Below are positions 3,416 to 40,857 of a DNA stretch of 64,000 bases, piece after piece. The first letter of the stretch is position 1, and each line of letters begins with the position of its first letter. The stretch is taken from assembly GCF_041886205.1 (NCBI RefSeq), contig NZ_CP169029.1, one strand, 5' to 3'. This DNA comes from Escherichia coli. GTDB taxonomy: Bacteria; Pseudomonadota; Gammaproteobacteria; Enterobacterales; Enterobacteriaceae. Both the position numbers and the translations under genes were made by a program. The notes beneath the pieces are model-generated. The model had not been told where the DNA came from, did no database searches, and worked only from the letters and a program-made list of their open reading frames with translations.

Positions 3416-4018
3416 ATGGAACAGGCTATTTTGGGAAAAGACGGTTACGCTTTAAATGATGGGGAAATCATCGTACATAACTATGATGGCGAAACGCGGG
3501 AATATATTTCTACATCAACTGAATATCTCGCTGTCGGAGTCGGTATCCCGGCATGTTCCTGTCTGGATGCACCAGGTACACATAAAGCTGGTTATGCAAT
3601 CTGTCGCTCTGTAGATTTAAATTCATGGGAATATGTGCCAGACCATCGCGGTGAAACGGTCTATAGCACCAAAACAGGAGAATCAAAAGAAATCACCGCT
3701 CCGGGTGATTACCCTGAAAATACAACCACTATCGCCCCATTAACGCCATACGATAAATGGGATGGTGAGAAATGGGTGACCGATACTGAGGCACAGCATA
3801 GCGCCGCAGTAGACGCGGCAGAAGCACAGCGCCAGTCACTGATTGATGCTGCAATGGCTTCCATTAGTCTGATTCAACTGAAATTGCAGGCCGGACGTAA
3901 ACTGACGCAGGCAGAAACAACCAGACTTAACGCTGTGCTGGATTACATTGACGCGGTGACGGCAACAGATACCAGCACCGCGCCGGATGTCATCTGGCCT
4001 GAACTGCCGGAGGCGTAG
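3416..4018 (+). CDS. Tail fibre assembly protein (alternative cassette, Tfa')
   Basis: 200 aa, starts 1 nt after the variable segment; C-terminal ...PDVIWPELPEA typical of Tfa family. Confidence 0.7.
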   Translation: MEQAILGKDGYALNDGEIIVHNYDGETREYISTSTEYLAVGVGIPACSCLDAPGTHKAGYAICRSVDLNSWEYVPDHRGETVYSTKTGESKEITAPGDYPENTTTIAPLTPYDKWDGEKWVTDTEAQHSAAVDAAEAQRQSLIDAAMASISLIQLKLQAGRKLTQAETTRLNAVLDYIDAVTATDTSTAPDVIWPELPEA

Positions 4019-4442
4019 GCCATTCAATATCTGGCGCACTGGAGGTATCAACCAGCTCCAGTGCATCCAGATAATCCAGCCACAAATTATATTGCGCCAG
4101 TTCCTCACCTTTCAGACGACCAATAGCGGCTTTACCGGGCCATTGCTTACTGTTCATGTATTCGTTGGCCTGGTTAATTAGTAGCTGTCTTTCTGATTCA
4201 GTAATTTCAATAAGCTCTTCATGCGTGGGTGGAGGAATATCTGCCCACGCAGGCAGCCCATCATCTCCGGCAATACGGATTTTTCCTTGTGGCGGTTCAG
4301 CCATAAACTCACTGATAATATTTTGATTTACTTCCTTAGCGTCTGATAAATCCCATCCCTCTGATTTATATTTATCAATCATATCCACAGGGAAAAAAGC
4401 ATTATGCCTTGCGCTATAAACATATTCGTTCATATAAATCAC
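3990..4442 (-). CDS. Tail fibre assembly protein (Tfa, active cassette)
   Basis: 150 aa; C-terminal ...PDIEWPTPP; 3' end overlaps convergent tfa' by 29 nt. Confidence 0.75.
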   Translation of the reverse strand: MIYMNEYVYSARHNAFFPVDMIDKYKSEGWDLSDAKEVNQNIISEFMAEPPQGKIRIAGDDGLPAWADIPPPTHEELIEITESERQLLINQANEYMNSKQWPGKAAIGRLKGEELAQYNLWLDYLDALELVDTSSAPDIEWPTPPAVQAR

Positions 4443-4453
4443 CCTGAATAAAA

Positions 4454-5116
4454 TTACTCACCAACAGCCCACCAACTGTAATTCATCGATACCGTGTCGC
4501 TGGTTGATGACGTTCTGTAAGCAGAATTAAAGCCGGTTAACGTTGGGCCTTCTGCAGTCATCACGAACCCTCGCCCAGCGCCTAAAGGCGCACCGCCATC
4601 ACCAGAATGAGTAAGCATGGCGCAGTCCGCTTTTTTGGGGAAAGGGATGCTGAATGTAATTCTCATTGTTTGCGTCGATAATGTCGGCGTAACCGCACCA
4701 CGACCATATTGCAGGATTTTCCCGTTGGGTAATTTCATCCATCCATCACCACTGGCAAAAGAGGCCATGTCCGGTATCTGATTTTCCCCTGTCCCCACAT
4801 CCCGTTTTGCCGCTTCTCCCAAACCAAGGTTTTCGAGAGCCGTTTTCACCGTGCCATCCGATTTGATATCGCCAAACGGATTCTTGCGGCTTAACAGCAG
4901 CGCACGAAGCGCGGTAAGCAGCTGGTCATGCCGCCCCTTCTCCAGGCTGGCACCGGATGCCTCCACCACGCTGCAAAGTTCCTCCTGCAACATGTCAAAG
5001 TAGTCATCATCCAGATCGGTGGCAGGCGTGCCGGTCTGGGGGTTACCACGGGTAAAACCGTTCTTACCCGCGCCGAACTTATCCTTCTGCGCGGTTTTCG
5101 TGTCTATACGATGCAT
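4454..5116 (-). CDS. Tail fibre protein (constant N-terminal part + current variable C-terminus)
   Basis: 220 aa; crossover site B lies in frame inside the gene (encodes [11 protein letters not shown]). Confidence 0.7.
4814..4839. other. Invertase crossover site B (gix/hix-like)
   Basis: ttctcccaaacc-aa-ggttttcgagag, close to recalled gix/hix consensus; inside tail fibre gene. Confidence 0.7.
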
Positions 5117-26956: not shown

Positions 26957-27766
26957 TCAATGAACGGTATCGAGCAGCTTTAACAGCTCAGGGAATCGGG
27001 ATTCGAAGAAATGCGGCTGCGTCTCGCGCGGATTTGCGGGACTGGTGATGTTCTTGCCGAACATGCAACCTTTCGCTGTCAGCGACCAGAATTTTTTGAT
27101 GTTGTTAATCGCGGTACGGCTGTATCGTTCGCGCTGCTCGACGATCCCCAGCTTCACCATCTGGTGATATGCCTGATTAGCCGTCAGGCGGATACCATAC
27201 TGTTTCAGCAGTGCACTCAGTGACAGTGTCGGGCGACTTGAGCCATCAGGCGCGTCAGCAGGAGCATCAATGGCATAGCGCGGTGCCAGATTCGGTAAGC
27301 CAACAGCCTCCTGGAGTTTCTGACAGGCCCCAAGCACAGATGAGTTAGACAGGTTTAACTCCCGACGCATAAAGTCCAGCAGAATCACACCAGCCTGCAT
27401 CTTGTCAGCAGCCTGTCCGGATAATTTTTCCGGTGCACTGGTTACCATATCGAAAGTACGGATCACCTTCAGATGGAATGACGGGCTGATCCACATTGCA
27501 TAGGCATACACCAGTTCTTTGCAGACATACGTCCCCTGGTTATTTCCGCCATTAATGACGCTAACTGGTTGATTTTGTTCCAGAGGCGTAATTCCACCCT
27601 CGGTGAAAAGTTGTTCAATCAATTCACAGGTTTGCTTATTGGAGAGCCAGTATTTCGGGCGGTTTTTTTGTTCTCCCCCGGCTGCCCTGTGCAGATCGTT
27701 CAGGCTGTAACGCCCATAAGCATCACGACGAACTTCAATACCATCAATGACCATCAGATTATTCAT
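26957..27766 (-). CDS. KilA-N domain protein (antirepressor-like)
   Basis: N-terminal MNNLMVIDGIEVRRDAYGRYSLNDLHRAAG... typical KilA-N start. Confidence 0.6.
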   Translation of the reverse strand: MNNLMVIDGIEVRRDAYGRYSLNDLHRAAGGEQKNRPKYWLSNKQTCELIEQLFTEGGITPLEQNQPVSVINGGNNQGTYVCKELVYAYAMWISPSFHLKVIRTFDMVTSAPEKLSGQAADKMQAGVILLDFMRRELNLSNSSVLGACQKLQEAVGLPNLAPRYAIDAPADAPDGSSRPTLSLSALLKQYGIRLTANQAYHQMVKLGIVEQRERYSRTAINNIKKFWSLTAKGCMFGKNITSPANPRETQPHFFESRFPELLKLLDTVH

Positions 27767-27785
27767 ACTTCGTTTCTCCTCTTAA

Positions 27786-28175
27786 TCAGGCGGCTGCACC
27801 CGCCGTTTTCTCGTACTTACTGATAGTGATCTCGACCTTCCCTTCCGGGATAACCGGTCCCCACTCCACCAGCATTCTTTTCACCTGGCTGTCGTCTTCC
27901 CACACACCCGCGTGGGTCAGGGCGTCAAACAGCGCCTTGTTATAGTTGTCCAGATCGCGGATCCGGTTATCCGGAGGAAACAACACGATCTCCACTGAAG
28001 CAAGTACCGACGTTGGTTTTGGCAGACGACGTAACTGCTCAACTATTGCTGCGCACGCCGCGCTCTGGAATTTTCGCCCCGCCGCGCTTATCAGGCTCTT
28101 ACCAGCAAACGCCCCTTTGTTGGGGTGTCGCCAGTACGTGTTCACGCTGGGCGGAAAAGGCAGGATCAGCTTCAT
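27786..28175 (-). CDS. rusA: RusA Holliday junction resolvase
   Basis: 129 aa; MKLILPFPPSVNTYWRH N-terminus characteristic of RusA. Confidence 0.8.
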   Translation of the reverse strand: MKLILPFPPSVNTYWRHPNKGAFAGKSLISAAGRKFQSAACAAIVEQLRRLPKPTSVLASVEIVLFPPDNRIRDLDNYNKALFDALTHAGVWEDDSQVKRMLVEWGPVIPEGKVEITISKYEKTAGAAA

Positions 28176-28498
28176 ACTTTCAGGCCCCTCTCATGTAACC
28201 AGTGGGTTGCACGCAGCCTTGCGTTTTCCTCACCGGCAAGCAGTGCGCGGATAATCCCGACCGCCTCGCTGTCGTCGTCCTTCACCGCGGTATGAAGCGT
28301 TATCCCCCGGGCCACGCCACGCTTTATCGTGATGACGCCTTTTTTCTCCAGTGCGCGAAGATGCTCTACCGCTGCATTCACTGAACGGTATCCCAGCATG
28401 GTTGCCACCTCCTGATTGGTTGGCGGAAAGCCACGCTCTTTCTGATAAGAAATCAGCATATCCAGCACCTGCTGCTGGCATTGAGTTAACGTCGTCAT
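28172..28498 (-). CDS. LexA DNA-binding-domain-like protein lacking S24 peptidase domain (start at internal Met MTTLTQ)
   Basis: Aligns by eye to host LexA residues 1-70 (e.g. GFPPTNQEVATMLGYRSVNAAVEHLRALEKKGVI vs [34 protein letters not shown]); ~108 aa total. Confidence 0.6.
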   Translation of the reverse strand: MTTLTQCQQQVLDMLISYQKERGFPPTNQEVATMLGYRSVNAAVEHLRALEKKGVITIKRGVARGITLHTAVKDDDSEAVGIIRALLAGEENARLRATHWLHERGLKV

Positions 28499-28992
28499 TA
28501 CGCCCCCACGTAATTCCCTGACAGATACCACTCATCACTCGATACAGCGCGCTTGCTGCTTTTCCGTAAACACTGCTCACGACGCGCCAGAAAATTGTTT
28601 CGTTCTGGCTGGGAGTGGCTTTCACGGAATGCCGCCATCCACACCGTTGCAGCACGACGGTATAAGCCCCTGGACTCCAGTTCTTCAGCCTGGCGGGTCA
28701 GGCACAAAATCTCCCGCGGGTCGTTAGTGCCGACATAGAAATTGCGCACAGGTCTGGTTTCACGAACTGGTTGCGGTTCTGCCTCCTGCGCTCTCTCAGT
28801 CAGGCGCGGGAAATGTCTGCGTGTATCCCCTTCACAACGGTGAGCCACACGACCACTCTGACGTAACTTGCTTGCTGACTGCAGAACGCGCTGCCGTGAG
28901 TAACCTGCAAAAGCATCCGCAATGTCTCTGGAAGTACACCCCGGATGGGCTTCAATGTATTTCTGAACTTCATTCAAAAGACTCATGATCAC
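28498..28992 (-). CDS. Winged-helix + PerC-like C-terminal domain protein (possible transcription regulator)
   Basis: 164 aa; C-terminal AEELESRGLYRRAATVWMAAF resembles PerC-family motif as recalled. Confidence 0.35.
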   Translation of the reverse strand: MIMSLLNEVQKYIEAHPGCTSRDIADAFAGYSRQRVLQSASKLRQSGRVAHRCEGDTRRHFPRLTERAQEAEPQPVRETRPVRNFYVGTNDPREILCLTRQAEELESRGLYRRAATVWMAAFRESHSQPERNNFLARREQCLRKSSKRAVSSDEWYLSGNYVGA

Positions 28993-29990
28993 CCCCTGAA
29001 TCCTGCTGGGATCTGGCTGTAGTCCACGTTGTCGTAACTGGCTTTGAAGTACGGGTCTTCGCGTTTTTCTGTGTACGTGCTGACGGACGGCGATAAGCGC
29101 AGGGAAAGCTCATCCCATTTTTCCCGCAGCTTCGACGGGCTGAGCACGTTACGGCACCAGAACGGATCGCGGCTGACGCGGCTGTACATCTCGCAGATTT
29201 GTTTGTGAGTACGACCATCCTGCACACACATCAGGCGAATTTCGTTTGCCCAGGCTGTCCAGTTCGGTTCTTTGGGACGAACCACCTCGCCGTCACATTC
29301 GGCAGCCTGCTCGTACAGGGCGATGATTTTTTTCCAGAGCCACTGTGCGCAGGTCAAATCATCCTGCGTCCCCCACTGGCGCTTTTTAGGGCTGAATACA
29401 ACCGCATCAGGATGGCGAGTTAAAAAATCCTGTTCAGCCGTCTGCGTGTCCGGTTGCGAAGAGTCCGGACGAGAAGGTTTTTTATCTGACGGATCATGTT
29501 TTGATTTTACTGACGGATCCCCGCCAGATTCTGACGGGTGAAAACCCGCTTTTTTGCCAGATTTCGACGCATCAAATTTTGACGGGTCAGATTTTGATGC
29601 GTCAGATTTTGACGGGTCAGATTTTGATGCGTCAGATTTTGACGGGTCAGATTTTGATGCGTCAGATTTTGACGGGTCAGAATCTGACAGTTGAGAAAAT
29701 GCCGCTGCCTGAAGCTTCGCAACGTTAAGCTGATAAACATTCGACGCATTGCGGTTACCCTGGCGACGCGCCTTACGCGTTAACCAGCCTTCTGCTTCCA
29801 GCCGTGCGATAGCCGTTCTGACGGTACTCATCCCCGCGCCAATCTGGCGTGCAATGGTTTCAATTGATGGCCAACACACACCTTCGTCATTACTGAAATC
29901 AGCCAGGCGGGCCATAATTGCCACGCTGGATAGCTTCATGCCTGACGCAGCGCAACCATCCCATACATAGCCGGTTAATTTAGTGCTCAT
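28989..29990 (-). CDS. Replication initiator-like protein with internal iterons
   Basis: 333 aa; N-terminal HTH-like segment; central (DASKSDPSKS)n repeat encoded by tandem DNA repeats. Confidence 0.55.
   Translation of the reverse strand: MSTKLTGYVWDGCAASGMKLSSVAIMARLADFSNDEGVCWPSIETIARQIGAGMSTVRTAIARLEAEGWLTRKARRQGNRNASNVYQLNVAKLQAAAFSQLSDSDPSKSDASKSDPSKSDASKSDPSKSDASKSDPSKFDASKSGKKAGFHPSESGGDPSVKSKHDPSDKKPSRPDSSQPDTQTAEQDFLTRHPDAVVFSPKKRQWGTQDDLTCAQWLWKKIIALYEQAAECDGEVVRPKEPNWTAWANEIRLMCVQDGRTHKQICEMYSRVSRDPFWCRNVLSPSKLREKWDELSLRLSPSVSTYTEKREDPYFKASYDNVDYSQIPAGFRG
29521..29690. repeat. Tandem direct repeats (30-bp unit x3 perfect plus degenerate flanking copies): candidate replication origin iterons
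   Basis: gacgggtcagattttgatgcgtcagatttt repeated at 29581-29670, partial copies either side. Confidence 0.65.
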
Positions 29991-29999
29991 GACCGACCT

Positions 30000-30338
30000 C
30001 TATTTCCCTGAATTTACGACGAAACTGTTCGAGCGGGCTGAAGCACTCATGCTCATAGCCTTCGCGGAGGTAGATAACCCGTTGTGTTTCCGGTTCCCAA
30101 CGAATGACTCTGACGGGCACTCCGTAGTGATCTTTGAACCAGCGGTTAACTTGTTGCAAAGGACTGTCTCCTTCTGCCGGTTGAAATCACCCACAGCCCA
30201 CTCTGCAAAGCTGTGGGTTACAATTTCCCTGTCACCTGGTACATTCACTGCATAGCAATACTCCACCTTCGCTTTTCCACCCGGTACAGGAAGCGCAATC
30301 AGTTGCGAGCGACGGTAGTGTGTTGTTAAACTGTTCAT
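30000..30338 (-). CDS. Hypothetical protein
   Basis: 112-aa ORF filling gap between regulatory gene and replication gene with 4-nt overlaps. Confidence 0.35.
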
Positions 30339-30919
30339 GCGTTAGTTTCTCCACAACCAGAAGCAATCGACGCCACGACGCCCGGAGCTGCACACTCGCG
30401 GGCGTTACTCTTTTCCGGCGCACAAAAAACACGAAATAACAGTGTTAAATGCTCCTGCCACTTCGCCATTACTTGGTAGCTGTTCTCTTCGATTTGCTCA
30501 CGCTCAGCCTGGTCAATAACTCCATCAGCAGTTGCCTTGCGTAAGTACTGGGAATGCTTGCCAATCCATTCTATTGACTCCATCAGCCGCTGATTAATGT
30601 CACCATTGTCAATGTCATCAATGACCACCAGCGGCACAAACACCCCATTACTACGACGGGCTATTGCATCTGTTACATGCCTGGTACCACTGGCATCCTG
30701 TAAAACCATGGCCCACTCAAGTGGAAAAATTTGATCCCCACCGCTACGCAGTCTGTTATGCAATTGATCTTTTGCTGGGGTGATATCATCAGATTTATAC
30801 AAACCAAGAATTTCTGCTGCTTCCTCATAGCCATGAGGTAAATCAGCAATCGTTCTTCGTATTGCTGCCACCAGCCATGCTGGTTGTTTATCAACTTTCC
30901 ATTCAGGTTCTTTACCCAC
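30335..30919 (-). CDS. Early regulatory protein in CII position (YdaT-like, uncertain)
   Basis: 194 aa directly downstream of Cro-like gene. Confidence 0.35.
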
Positions 30920-30946
30920 GGTTAATTCCTCATTTCTGTGGTGTTT

Positions 30947-31144
30947 TTATGCCGCAGCACTGTTAGTCTTTTGATATAAAGACACGTCAACTTTCAGTTT
31001 CCCGTTAGTAATTTTTTCTAACTGGTACGCTCGGCCTTCAGGAATAATCTCAGGCCACTCTGAAACAGACGGATGCTTAATACCTAGGGCTTCGGCGGTT
31101 TTACAAACTCCGCCGAAATAATTAATCACGTCGGATTTCCGCAT
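30947..31144 (-). CDS. Cro-like HTH regulator (YdaS-like)
   Basis: 65 aa; divergent from CI-like repressor across operator region. Confidence 0.65.
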   Translation of the reverse strand: MRKSDVINYFGGVCKTAEALGIKHPSVSEWPEIIPEGRAYQLEKITNGKLKVDVSLYQKTNSAAA

Positions 31145-31239
31145 TTCTGTCTCCCGTTAAATTACGTTAAGCAGAAATGTAGGATATCCAACATGCAAAT
31201 GTCAAGAATCCTACATGGGCATGTGGTAGGATTGCCTAC
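31145..31239. promoter_or_regulatory. OR-like region: 18-bp palindromic operator (31177-31194) inside PR (-35 TTGACA at 31200-31205, -10 TACATT at 31176-31181 on minus strand) plus further half-sites
   Basis: atgtaggatatccaacat operator repeated three times around the repressor gene; promoter hexamers 18 nt apart. Confidence 0.6.
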
Positions 31240-31893
31240 ATGATGAACATGAGTGATCGTATTCGCCAAAGGCGAAAAGAACTGAACCTGACACAACAAG
31301 CACTGGCTGATTTGACTGGTGTGAACCGTGTCACGGTTACTGGATGGGAAAAGGACGACTACCAACCAAATGGAGCCAACCTTCAAGCCCTAGCCAACGC
31401 ACTTAAATGCGATCCTCTGTGGCTTGTTAGCGGAAAAGGCTCGCCTGAACCAAAGATAAATCTAAAACCTGAAATATTCGCAGTTAAAAAAGTCCCCCTA
31501 ATCTCGTGGGTTCAGGCGGGTTCATGGACAATGACGGAGCCTGGTGTCAGGAAAGAAGATGCTGAAGAGTGGGTTTATACTACCGCCCTTGTATCAGAAA
31601 TGGCATTTGCACTACGGGTCCGTGGTGATTCAATGACCAATCCCCTCGGCTCACCATCGATACCAGAAGGTTCTATCGTTATCGTAGAGCCAGATATTAT
31701 TGATACAGAGTGTATTAACGGAAAAATCGTTGTTGCCCATATCAATGGTGGGCAAGAAGCGACACTCAAAAAATTTGTTGAGGACTGGCCGAACAGGTAT
31801 CTCGTCCCACTAAATCCTAACTATAAAACTATTGAATGCGGTGAGAACTGCAGAATAGTTGGTCTTGTCAAACAAGTAATAATGGATTTTTGA
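31240..31893 (+). CDS. CI-like repressor (HTH + LexA-like S24 autopeptidase domain)
   Basis: 217 aa; N-terminal HTH (RRKELNLTQQALADLTGVNRVTVTGWE); C-terminal GDSM serine and downstream Lys typical of S24. Confidence 0.85.
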   Translation: MMNMSDRIRQRRKELNLTQQALADLTGVNRVTVTGWEKDDYQPNGANLQALANALKCDPLWLVSGKGSPEPKINLKPEIFAVKKVPLISWVQAGSWTMTEPGVRKEDAEEWVYTTALVSEMAFALRVRGDSMTNPLGSPSIPEGSIVIVEPDIIDTECINGKIVVAHINGGQEATLKKFVEDWPNRYLVPLNPNYKTIECGENCRIVGLVKQVIMDF

Positions 31894-31955
31894 CACATCT
31901 TCCTCACTATCGCAAAACCGGGGTATCCCCGGTTTTTTTATGAGCCTATCTTTTT

Positions 31956-32009
31956 ATGTAGGATAACCAACATAAACTCTTGACACTCACATGTTGGATA
32001 TCCTACATT
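31956..32009 (+). promoter_or_regulatory. OL-like region: two 18-bp operators (31956-31973, 31991-32008) bracketing PL (-35 TTGACA 31980-31985, -10 TACATT 32004-32009)
   Basis: atgtaggataaccaacat and atgttggatatcctacat; same promoter-operator arrangement as OR. Confidence 0.6.
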
Positions 32010-32352
32010 TGTTTTTAGAGTTGTGGTGAATGCGCAGGCTGATGCGCGAAAGACATTGCAGCTATTGCGGAAAAGAGCTGTTCGGCGGGGCAATTAAACG
32101 CCCGTGAGAGTCTGAAATAACCGCAAGCCGGAGATCAGCACCGGTCACCACAACAGCCACTGCTTTGGCGGTACCAGTTTGTACACTTGCTTCCGGCTGG
32201 TACCGCTCTTTTTACAAAACAGAGAAGAGCATCACCGGACGACGGGCTCATAACCCAATCCATCCGGGCGGCTGCCACCGCAGGTGTTCTTCTCTGTTTT
32301 GTGGAGAAACCAACCGACCTTACAGGGTCGATATGATGAGGAGCAGCAAAAT

Positions 32353-32713
32353 GGCTAGCGAACGCAGTACTGATGTGCAGGCATTTATCGGGGAGCTGGA
32401 CGGCGGCGTATTTGAAACCAAAATCGGCGCTGTTCTCAGTGAAGTCGCTTCCGGTGTGATGAACACGAAAACCAAAGGTAAGGTCTCGCTCAACCTGGAA
32501 ATCGAACCGTTTGATGAGAACCGTGTGAAAATCAAACACAAACTCTCATATGTTCGCCCGACTAACCGCGGGAAAATTTCCGAAGAAGACACCACCGAAA
32601 CGCCGATGTATGTCAATCGCGGTGGTCGCCTGACTATTCTGCAGGAAGACCAGGGACAATTACTGACTCTTGCCGGTGAACCTGACGGAAAACTCCGCGC
32701 AGCAGGTCATTAA
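32353..32713 (+). CDS. Hypothetical early protein (YfdP-like size; start uncertain)
   Basis: ORF-track ORF 32165-32713; shortened to internal Met to give ~120 aa. Confidence 0.35.
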
Positions 32714-39037: not shown

Positions 39038-40024
39038 TTATTTCTCCGATTTAACCCCGAACAAATCATAAATTAATTTAGAAGTGTCTGTAAGTATTTT
39101 AATCTCTTCCTTTGAGGTTGGGTCAAACGACTTCGCGAAGCTAATTAATTGTGGTGCAGCATCTCGCATTTTGCTTAAAATATCAGGATCGAGCGTTCCT
39201 TCATTCACCAGATGTGACATCTTATCCAGATAGCCATCAAAATTCATTTCTCCCCCATCAGCCAGACGCTTCATCTCTCCCAGGTACTTCTTCATATCAC
39301 GTTGAGATAATTTTTCAAACTGAGCTTTCAGGTAGCTCTCATTATTTTCATTAATATACACTGTTTCTGATAAATCTGCGTAGGCACTAGAATATGAAAG
39401 TGAAATTAACAGCGAAGCAAATAATTTTAAGCTGTTGTCATCATGTTCCTGGCAGGCATTAACAAACGTTAAAAAACCAGAACCTATTGCTTGAAAATGT
39501 ATATTCGCTAAAGGTTCATTATCCTTAGATTCCTCATAAAATAGCTGAACCGTGGAGGGAAGGTCATTCTTAGTTTCTACATCAAAAGTACATTGTTCAA
39601 TGGGCATTGCATCTTTATTATCCCCAAGATTACATATACTATTAATCGCGAAATGAAAAATAGCCCGGTCAACAACTGATGCAATAAAGTCACGATCGTT
39701 TAAATCCTCATCAGTGCAATCGTCAATATACTTATTGACCCACATTTTGAGATCATTTATTTGCTTAAGTAACATCACATTTTTTTTACGTGCATGCCAT
39801 AAATTATGCGTGATTCGTTGAATAAACAAATCTATTTTTGCAATAATTATATCCCGATGACGCAGCGCTGCATAATCAATAGATTTACCATATATATTAT
39901 TTAATTTACCTTTGATTGAACCTCTATTATCTAATTTATCTTTGATTGCATCTTCATTATCGAATTGATTTGAATTGAGTGTTTTATTAAAGTATCTAGT
40001 TGCACCGGGTATTATCTTCAACAT
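39038..40024 (-). CDS. AT-rich hypothetical protein on host side of att junction (occupies yjbL/yjbM position next to zur)
   Basis: 328-aa ORF, Asn/Lys/Asp-rich, low GC. Confidence 0.4.
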
Positions 40025-40341
40025 GATTCATCTACCTTTTTTGTCGTACCGTGTCCTCCTTATAATTCTTTTGCCATCTGGTCACTATCAAAAATCGCTC
40101 ATAATTTCTGAACTACAGGTATGCGTTTAAACCCAGTTAAATAAATAGCGAGTTAACTTGAAGCAATTTATTTAAAAATGAATTATTAATTATTATCGTG
40201 TTGATAATGGTACGACAAGGCAACACAACACCTTACCTACAAAACAGAAAATCAACATTACGGCAACAATAAGGGTTCTCGGTGTTTTTCCTGGAACATG
40301 GTAAAGTAAGGACATTCTTAACCCCCACTTTGAGGTGCCCG

Positions 40342-40857
40342 ATGGAAAAGACCACAACGCAGGAGTTATTAGCGCAGGCTGAAAAAATCTGCGCGCAGCG
40401 TAATGTGCGCCTGACCCCACAGCGCCTGGAAGTGTTGCGCCTGATGAGTCTGCAGGATGGCGCTATCAGCGCTTATGATCTGCTTGATTTACTGCGCGAA
40501 GCTGAACCGCAAGCCAAGCCGCCAACGGTTTATCGCGCGCTGGATTTTCTGCTTGAGCAAGGTTTTGTGCATAAGGTGGAATCCACCAACAGTTATGTGC
40601 TCTGTCATCTGTTCGACCAGCCCACCCATACGTCAGCCATGTTTATTTGCGATCGCTGCGGCGCGGTGAAAGAAGAGTGTGCTGAAGGCGTGGAAGACAT
40701 CATGCATACGTTGGCGGCAAAAATGGGTTTTGCCCTGCGGCATAATGTGATTGAAGCACATGGGCTCTGTGCGGCATGCGTGGAAGTGGAAGCGTGTCGT
40801 CATCCTGAACAGTGCCAGCATGATCACTCTGTGCAGGTGAAAAAGAAACCGCGTTAA
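40342..40857 (+). CDS. zur: Zinc uptake regulator Zur
   Basis: 171 aa from MEKTTTQELL...; Fur-family; ORF-track start 40282 is an upstream extension. Confidence 0.9.
   Translation: MEKTTTQELLAQAEKICAQRNVRLTPQRLEVLRLMSLQDGAISAYDLLDLLREAEPQAKPPTVYRALDFLLEQGFVHKVESTNSYVLCHLFDQPTHTSAMFICDRCGAVKEECAEGVEDIMHTLAAKMGFALRHNVIEAHGLCAACVEVEACRHPEQCQHDHSVQVKKKPR

Follow-up and report, generated by a model that had tools for sequence, protein, structure and literature searches.

The window analyzed here is a stretch of 64,000 nt (64 kb) of an Escherichia coli chromosome (contig NZ_CP169029.1) that carries a lambdoid prophage. Within the gene encoding the replication initiator of this prophage lies an array of ten short repeats (iterons, here called boxes). 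We propose, at a probability of roughly 0.8, that this array together with the following 50 bp is the replication origin of the prophage, located in the linker-coding part of the initiator gene. Support for reading the array as an origin comes from sequence comparison. The placement within the gene is the same as in lambda, phi80, and P22: the boxes occupy codons 101-157 of 333, the lambda iterons codons 117-145 of 299, the phi80 repeats codons ~123-146, and the P22 origin codons 118-166 of 271.

The box array, the post-array module, and the initiator

The array was the strongest tandem repeat across the window. Tandem Repeats Finder called positions 29558-29681 as 4.1 copies of period 30 (95% matches, score 220) or, alternatively, the same stretch as 8.3 copies of period 15. 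It contains three perfect tandem copies of the 30-mer GACGGGTCAGATTTTGATGCGTCAGATTTT (29581-29610, 29611-29640, and 29641-29670). These copies and their 15-bp sub-repeat had been described in an earlier note on this DNA, and the region assigned there to the array (29521-29690) encloses all ten boxes.

Searching the entire window for the 12-mer core GTCAGATTTTGA (+ strand), with up to two mismatches allowed, returned 19 matches compared with 6.25 ± 2.4 expected; 19 or more matches were reached in 0 of 100 shuffles. Ten same-strand boxes lie within 29523-29688, with starts at 29523, 29556, 29571, 29586, 29601, 29616, 29631, 29646, 29661, and 29676, i.e. at a spacing of 15 nt except for a single 33-nt step. 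The seven core matches beyond the array are at chance level, and the same search detected no second box cluster elsewhere in the 64 kb. Every box displays GTCA/TGAC dyad symmetry, and the outermost boxes (GTCAGAATCTGAC) are near-perfect palindromes. In gene orientation, a box consists of TCAAAATCTGAC followed by three variable nucleotides.

The array is in frame within the open reading frame (ORF) 28989-29990 on the minus strand and is translated as SDSDPSKSDASKSDPSKSDASKSDPSKSDASKSDPSKFDASKSGKKAGFHPSESGG, i.e. (SDPSK/SDASK)n. Two further ORFs over the array, 29501-29728 (+) and 29507-29749 (-), of 75 and 80 amino acids (aa), were rejected as stop-free artefacts of the repeat and are not considered genes. 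The T6 run in the gap that interrupts the array reads as A6 in gene orientation (codons KK), and an A/T run is kept there in all three groups of boxes described below. We also noted that 29535-29548 (+), in the array gap and antisense to the initiator gene, forms a terminator-like hairpin (CGGGTGAAAACCCG) followed by the T6 run.

The 40-mer of lowest stability in the gene, at 29472-29511 (70% AT), directly follows the array; it has a free energy (dG) of -47.0 compared with a regional mean of -55.6 (standard deviation 3.8), which places it 2.3 standard deviations above the mean. In gene orientation, the post-array module common to all three box groups comprises the A6 run, the last box, and then GATCCGTCAGTAAA...GATCCGTCAGATAAAAA...GTCCGGAC. 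It includes two GATCCGTCAG repeats on the minus strand (29486-29495 and 29510-29519), each with a Dam GATC site and flanking A/T runs, and both GATC sites are invariant across all three box groups. We infer that the post-array module is the unwinding element.

The GTCCGGAC of the window takes the position that GTCCGAGA holds beside the AT-rich region in lambda and phi80, where the latter follows that region within about 10 nt. The post-array DNA of the window resembles that of lambda and phi80 weakly (17/45 positions), compared with 29/45 for the lambda-like right arm of the related locus L087, and homology of the window's unwinding element to that of lambda at the DNA level is not claimed. 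In L087, which is from Citrobacter, GTCCGAAAATTCTGGCGAATTCCCTGAC follows the AT-rich module at gene nt 525-552 and is nearly the right flank of lambda; the window sequence differs there.

The encoded initiator matched PHROG 391 ('replication initiation O-like') from end to end (E = 9.5e-134; protein residues 1-333, profile positions 1-298 of 298), and its residues 23-70 matched the Pfam domain HTH_36 (PF13730; E = 4.7e-11, 42.8 bits, above the cut-off). Both matches agree with the earlier note, which had placed the repeats in frame in an initiator-like ORF. An AlphaFold2 model, built on 24 homologs, divides the protein into a winged-helix N-terminal domain (N-domain, aa 1-102), a disordered stretch (104-184), a helical C-terminal domain (C-domain, 187-300), and a disordered tail. 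The predicted local distance difference test score (pLDDT) was 71-90 for the N-domain, which consists of helices and a beta-hairpin wing at E70-73/E85-88, and fell below 50 for linker residues 104-184. The model holds a single winged helix. Foldseek related the N-domain weakly to winged helices of MarR/ArsR type (best E = 1.6e-3), and a sequence search of the PDB found no solved relative of the initiator, the best matches being MarR proteins (E = 0.04). The modeled fold thus supports DNA binding by the N-domain without identifying its family.

The C-terminal half aligned readily with well-studied initiators. By blastp, aa 151-297 matched aa 139-270 of lambda O with 36% identity (E = 1.5e-25), and the C-domain matched phi80 gp15 with 36% identity (E = 1.3e-24); tblastn linked the initiator to many O genes at E of about 1e-17. 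The C-domain of lambda O is its P-binding domain, and by analogy the C-domain of the window's initiator would be the recruitment domain. The protein is thus O-like by layout and by its C-domain, with a different DNA-binding head. One database labels the family member P0073 'Replication protein 15'.

Two other identities were rejected. The RefSeq label of the SfIV homolog, a 'primosomal protein' of DnaD/DnaT type, is unsupported, as DnaD_N (PF21984) reached 19.1 bits compared with a cut-off of 27. A Rep protein of the iteron-plasmid kind was discarded because no Pfam domain of Rep_3 type was found in the initiator, because the model has one winged helix only, and because the repeats lie inside the gene.

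DNA-level selection, box types, and array length

To compare codons, the window sequence and those of eight homologs, drawn from E. coli, Salmonella, Klebsiella, Citrobacter, and Pantoea, were threaded on the protein alignment, and identical codons were counted among identical residues. Ranges are given for the seven homologs other than the mosaic L082; these share 55-77% protein identity with the window initiator. For the N-domain, codon identity came to 0.30-0.53, and for the C-domain to 0.47-0.55, which means that synonymous sites in both folded domains are close to saturated. Across the array the seven homologs gave 0.69-0.89, within an overall array range of 0.69-0.94, and the following 24 codons (aa 158-181) gave 0.64-1.00 at a residue identity of 58-79%. 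In the non-repetitive post-array segment, codons were identical at 15/15 or 16/16 positions in comparison with L081, L083, and L084 at a residue identity of 62-73%. Fisher tests on codon identity in single pairs gave p-values down to 8e-7.

The invariant positions of the repeat unit include third-codon positions, with serine always encoded by TCA and TCT, Pantoea included. The single freely varying codon per unit (P/A/T/Q) forms the box centre. Third positions that stay fixed while one whole codon varies are the opposite of the pattern expected from a peptide under selection. The codon comparison thereby shows the boxes to be under selection at the DNA level and not at the peptide level only.

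At least three N-domain groups can be distinguished among the homologs, and every group has a palindromic box of its own on a shared 15-nt frame, TCA-N5-TGA. These groups are (i) group A, with the box TCAAAATcTGAc + nCn, found in the window, Klebsiella, Pantoea, and Citrobacter; (ii) group B, with tCAAnnnTTGAc + ccc, found in E. coli and Salmonella; and (iii) group C, with cCAgaatCTGAACGT, found in E. coli and Klebsiella. In total, 105 homologs were parsed, and 100 of them had an N-domain long enough for group assignment. The type of linker motif agreed with the N-domain group in 99/100 classified homologs; the exception resembles a fourth type. The sampled sequences thus show co-variation of box type with the N-domain, and C-domain clusters have recombined freely with N-domain clusters.

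Mosaic genes display the same partition. These comprise (i) L082, with a group-B head and B boxes, which from about aa 170 continues with DNA sharing 98-100% identity with the window; (ii) Citrobacter phage phiNP, with a group-A head, array, and post-array module, to which an unrelated domain, Phg_2220_C, is joined at about aa 180; and (iii) mEp460_4F5, with an unrelated head and its own array of ~23-bp repeats in the same place, followed by a C-domain of window type from about aa 172. Because the mosaics break after the array and box type tracks the N-domain, the DNA-binding head and the repeats travel as one unit. The junctions in the three independent mosaics L082, L091, and L092 lie within about 15 codons of each other (aa 165-180, window ~29450-29495), just past the conserved module. 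In L092 (Escherichia virus mEp460_4F5), 5-6 repeats of ~23 bp and an AT-rich 12-bp repeat in three copies occupy 2084-2256, at the same relative position as the array of the window. This array is probably another undescribed origin of like design.

The earlier note had suggested comparing copy number among related prophages and had predicted that it would alter both the origin and the linker length; the alleles recovered bear out the latter, with linkers shifted by 5 aa for each 15-nt step. Between conserved flanks, the array measured 147 nt in 72/80 loci of IMG/VR, 162 nt in 4, and 177 nt in 5, as compared with 207 nt in the window. All of these alleles differ by multiples of 15 nt and keep the reading frame throughout. 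Full-length matches sampled from complete E. coli genomes all fell short of the window's length by 60 nt, except for one that fell short by 75 nt. The window allele is therefore the common allele plus four boxes. It is the longest seen in the E. coli/Shigella lineage, in which alleles carry 6-10 boxes; arrays in Klebsiella equal or exceed it in length. Among group-A homologs overall, linkers of between 2 and 58 residues occur, differing by multiples of five.

At the lower end of this range, five group-A homologs (P0017, P0015, P0029, P0066, and P0007) have linkers of 2-23 residues and have most or all boxes deleted. Prophages with such short linkers may be unable to replicate, and loss of the origin may be suspected wherever the array has collapsed in this way.

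Genomic context and distribution

Coordinates of the array, of the initiator gene, and of neighboring features are compiled in Table 1. The right end of the window, yjbF-H, is identical to that of several E. coli strains. Genes around the array are transcribed leftward (-), in the order cro, cII-like, DUF4222, initiator, PerC-like, LexA-DBD (DNA-binding domain), and RusA. Judged from its sequence, the pR-like promoter would drive leftward transcription of cro, the cII-like gene, DUF4222, and the initiator gene through the array.

Table 1. Features at the candidate origin and in the surrounding early region (window positions)
Feature	Position	Strand	Basis or remark
Iteron array, ten boxes	29523..29688	.	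Core search, Tandem Repeats Finder
Perfect core, three identical 30-mers = six boxes	29581..29670	.	Segment expanded relative to the common allele (80 related loci)
Array gap between the boxes at 29523 and 29556	29535..29555	.	Hairpin CGGGTGAAAACCCG, then T6
Post-array module, candidate unwinding element	29472..29519	.	Common to all box groups
GTCCGGAC, conserved, right edge of module	29463..29470	.	Mosaic breakpoints just beyond
Replication initiator gene, 333 aa	28989..29990	-	ORF call, PHROG 391, HTH_36, AlphaFold2, C-domain homology
Coding region of N-terminal winged-helix domain, aa 1-102	29685..29990	-	Predicted box-binding domain
Coding region of helical C-domain, aa 187-300	29091..29432	-	Homologous to lambda O C-domain
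pR-like promoter TTGACA-18-TACATT	31176..31205	-	Consensus match only; between cI-like and cro-like genes
cI-like repressor	31240-31893	+	
P22-Cro-like	30947-31144	-	
CII-like	30335-30919	-	
DUF4222	29980-30159	-	
PerC-like	28498-28992	-	Directly downstream of initiator
LexA-DNA-binding-domain protein	28172-28531	-	
RusA	27786-28175	-	

The Shigella phages SfIV and SfII carry the module at about 98% identity, as do several phages of E. coli. SfIV is inducible by ultraviolet light and forms plaques (PMC3851460). As SfIV carries the same module and is inducible and plaque-forming, the replication module therefore works. Among 5426 complete E. coli genomes, 2958 contained matches to the initiator module, the median number of places in a genome being 2. 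In laboratory strains of apparent K-12 type (e.g. JM83; H133-H139), the copy covers only query positions 1-508, i.e. the initiator gene is without most of the part coding for the N-domain and retains the common short array.

The gene that follows the initiator varies among relatives. In L084, a gene with the PF06992 domain of P-type helicase loaders, similar to lambda P, adjoins the initiator gene (3453-4184). In L081, an initiator of the same family is followed by a DnaC/IstB-like gene (3955-4701). The C-terminal tail of the initiator (aa 301-333) differs among the 'solo' version of the window, whose next genes encode neither a helicase nor a loader, the DnaC-like-linked version (L081), and the P-like-linked version (L084).

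An RNA element at the array is unlikely, because 27000-32500 matched no RNA family when scanned against Rfam and no tRNA was found in the window. Inspection by eye revealed no convincing consensus match to DnaA boxes or to sites for integration host factor (IHF); no scan was made for these. Only one further tandem repeat was found, amid host genes at 39896-39966, with 2.4 copies of an AT-rich 30-bp unit. It is located inside an ORF of 328 aa without assigned function (39038-40024, -). The adjoining ORF 40282-40857 (+) is, going by its sequence, the putative zinc-uptake regulator zur.

Proposed mechanism, known origins, and alternative explanations

According to the proposed mechanism, leftward transcription from the pR-like promoter after prophage induction would supply the initiator. 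Its winged-helix N-domain would bind the palindromic 15-bp boxes (TCA-N5-TGA), probably as dimers, giving a complex similar to the O-some. This complex could then destabilize the adjoining module of low stability, which contains the two GATCCGTCAG repeats. The lambda-O-like C-domain would next bring in the host replicative helicase. Recruitment may be direct or may proceed through host DnaC, since no gene for a P, DnaC-like, or DnaB-like protein adjoins the initiator gene. Slippage between the head-to-tail boxes would add or remove 15-nt units, and with each unit both the count of binding sites and the length of the linker (by 5 aa) would change.

For lambda, the location of the origin within the initiator gene is established. 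The same has been proposed for P22 and phage L, with repeats that differ from one phage to the next, and it has been remarked explicitly that the iterons bound differ between initiators and lie in the gene of the respective initiator (PMC7466680; PMC8022706). Iteron number is likewise known to differ among relatives of lambda, with four in some and six in others (the Shiga toxin phages 933W and P27 have six; PMC7466680). Lambda and the window have in common an origin, in the window a probable one, in the initiator linker, repeats with dyad symmetry, a low-stability region downstream, and a position after cro and a cII-like gene in the early operon. They differ in that lambda has four iterons of ~19 bp with spacers, located together with an AT-rich region midway along O, whereas the window has abutting head-to-tail boxes of 15 bp. 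Moreover, lambda has a P gene and a long A/T tract, whereas in the window the next gene is PerC-like and the module, with 70% AT, contains two 10-mers with GATC.

Gene 15 of phi80 encodes a homologous C-domain and harbors an array of 21 bp x 3.5 at codons ~123-146. Unlike the window, phi80 has an N-domain of the PF04492 type, a different repeat unit and sequence, and a partner gene (gene 14, P-like). The annotation of P22 places a rep_origin within gene 18 (codons 118-166), as would be the case here, although P22 gp18 showed no significant similarity to the window initiator (E = 0.49). Gene 18 of phage L contains six imprecise 11-bp repeats. In P22 and L, a gene for a DnaB-type helicase (P22 gene 12) adjoins the initiator gene, whereas the window is without one.

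Iteron plasmids (pSC101, R6K, P1, RK2, and pPS10) share with the window direct repeats, a winged-helix initiator, and an adjoining unwinding element (a candidate one in the window), but their iterons lie outside rep and each Rep has two winged-helix domains. In these plasmids, repeat number tunes replication. The non-lambdoid Eru replication types of Shiga toxin (Stx) phages are helicase/primase modules (PMC8044961) and were for this reason rejected as the identity of the module in the window. Judged by these comparisons, what is particular to the window is the combination of an HTH_36 head with an O-like body, the short 15-bp boxes, which abut and are large and variable in number, and the absence of an adjoining loader gene.

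The searched literature, which omits most subscription journals, yielded no paper describing the array as an origin. The genome papers of SfIV and SfI do not discuss the origin, and a paper with iterons and a 'replication protein' deals with an IncX1 plasmid and not with this module.

Several observations weigh against the array being an origin of the kind proposed. The interpretation in the earlier note was borne out wherever sequence analysis could test it, and the arrangement is lambdoid, with the array in an inter-domain linker as in lambda and P22, but the candidate is not strictly an origin of the lambda O family, as the N-domain is of HTH_36 type; the Pfam scan did not find PF04492 (Phage_rep_O) in the initiator, whereas lambda O, phi80 gp15, and P22 gp18 match this domain at 6e-25 to 7e-38. 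With a new box starting every 15 bp, there is little room for dimers of winged-helix proteins, so that full occupancy at one time may fail. The module, at 70% AT, is broken by the G+C-rich GATCCGTCAG, and the AT-rich region of lambda is richer. No P, DnaC-like, or DnaB-like gene was detected next to the initiator gene in the window or in SfIV. Some relatives are almost free of an array (linker of 2-17 aa), which means either that few boxes suffice or that these prophages are defective. Finally, the searched literature contained no binding or replication experiments on this initiator family.

The repeats could instead be a cis element that is bound by the initiator or by another protein and serves in autoregulation or titration, in handcuffing or incompatibility between prophages residing in one cell, or as a recombination hot spot, with replication starting elsewhere. 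The conserved codons and the co-variation with the N-domain would fit such a role, as they show that a partner reads the DNA and not that replication starts there; mosaic junctions cluster beside the array, and at a median of two places per E. coli genome cross-talk is conceivable. We nevertheless consider this explanation improbable, because the succession of boxes, low-stability module, and O-like C-domain matches experimentally defined origins in position and order, and because the window is without a second box cluster and has its other tandem repeat among host genes.

Less probable still is that the array is a slippage-prone stretch of low complexity that encodes a flexible linker, (SDPSK/SDASK)n, and has no function as DNA. 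The predicted disorder of the encoded segment, its freedom to vary from 2 to 58 residues, and the ease with which slippage yields perfect tandem copies would all be accommodated. However, a constraint on the peptide alone predicts free synonymous sites and fixed residues, and the opposite was observed in the array. Neither would such a constraint account for palindromic boxes, for a separate box on the 15-nt frame in each N-domain group, or for the complete codon identity after the array in L081, L083, and L084 (15/15 or 16/16). That the repeat is an artefact of assembly or of chance can practically be dismissed: the 207-nt allele is absent from the 80 IMG/VR loci and from the sampled matches in complete E. 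coli genomes, but arrays with fewer or more units occur, with the frame kept, in hundreds of independent assemblies as well as in phages SfII and SfIV, and long arrays are found in Klebsiella.

Beyond the location of an origin in the initiator gene, one may speculate, at rather long odds, that this origin is tunable by slippage. With boxes abutting head to tail on an in-frame period of 15 nt, single units would often be gained or lost, resetting the number of sites and the linker length jointly and thereby tuning the replication burst after induction, or cross-talk and incompatibility between the several related prophages present in many E. coli genomes; collapsed arrays would mark prophages that no longer replicate, and the solo initiator would load the host helicase without a phage loader.

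The array and its post-array module provide a concrete origin candidate for a replication module that is very common in prophages of E. coli, Shigella, and Salmonella. Box type could serve to classify the replicon specificity of prophages, and box number could flag those that are probably replication-defective, although neither use changes the understanding of such origins. The rule known from lambda is kept with a different family of DNA-binding domain, the sites and the head forming one exchangeable unit and the recruitment domain another.

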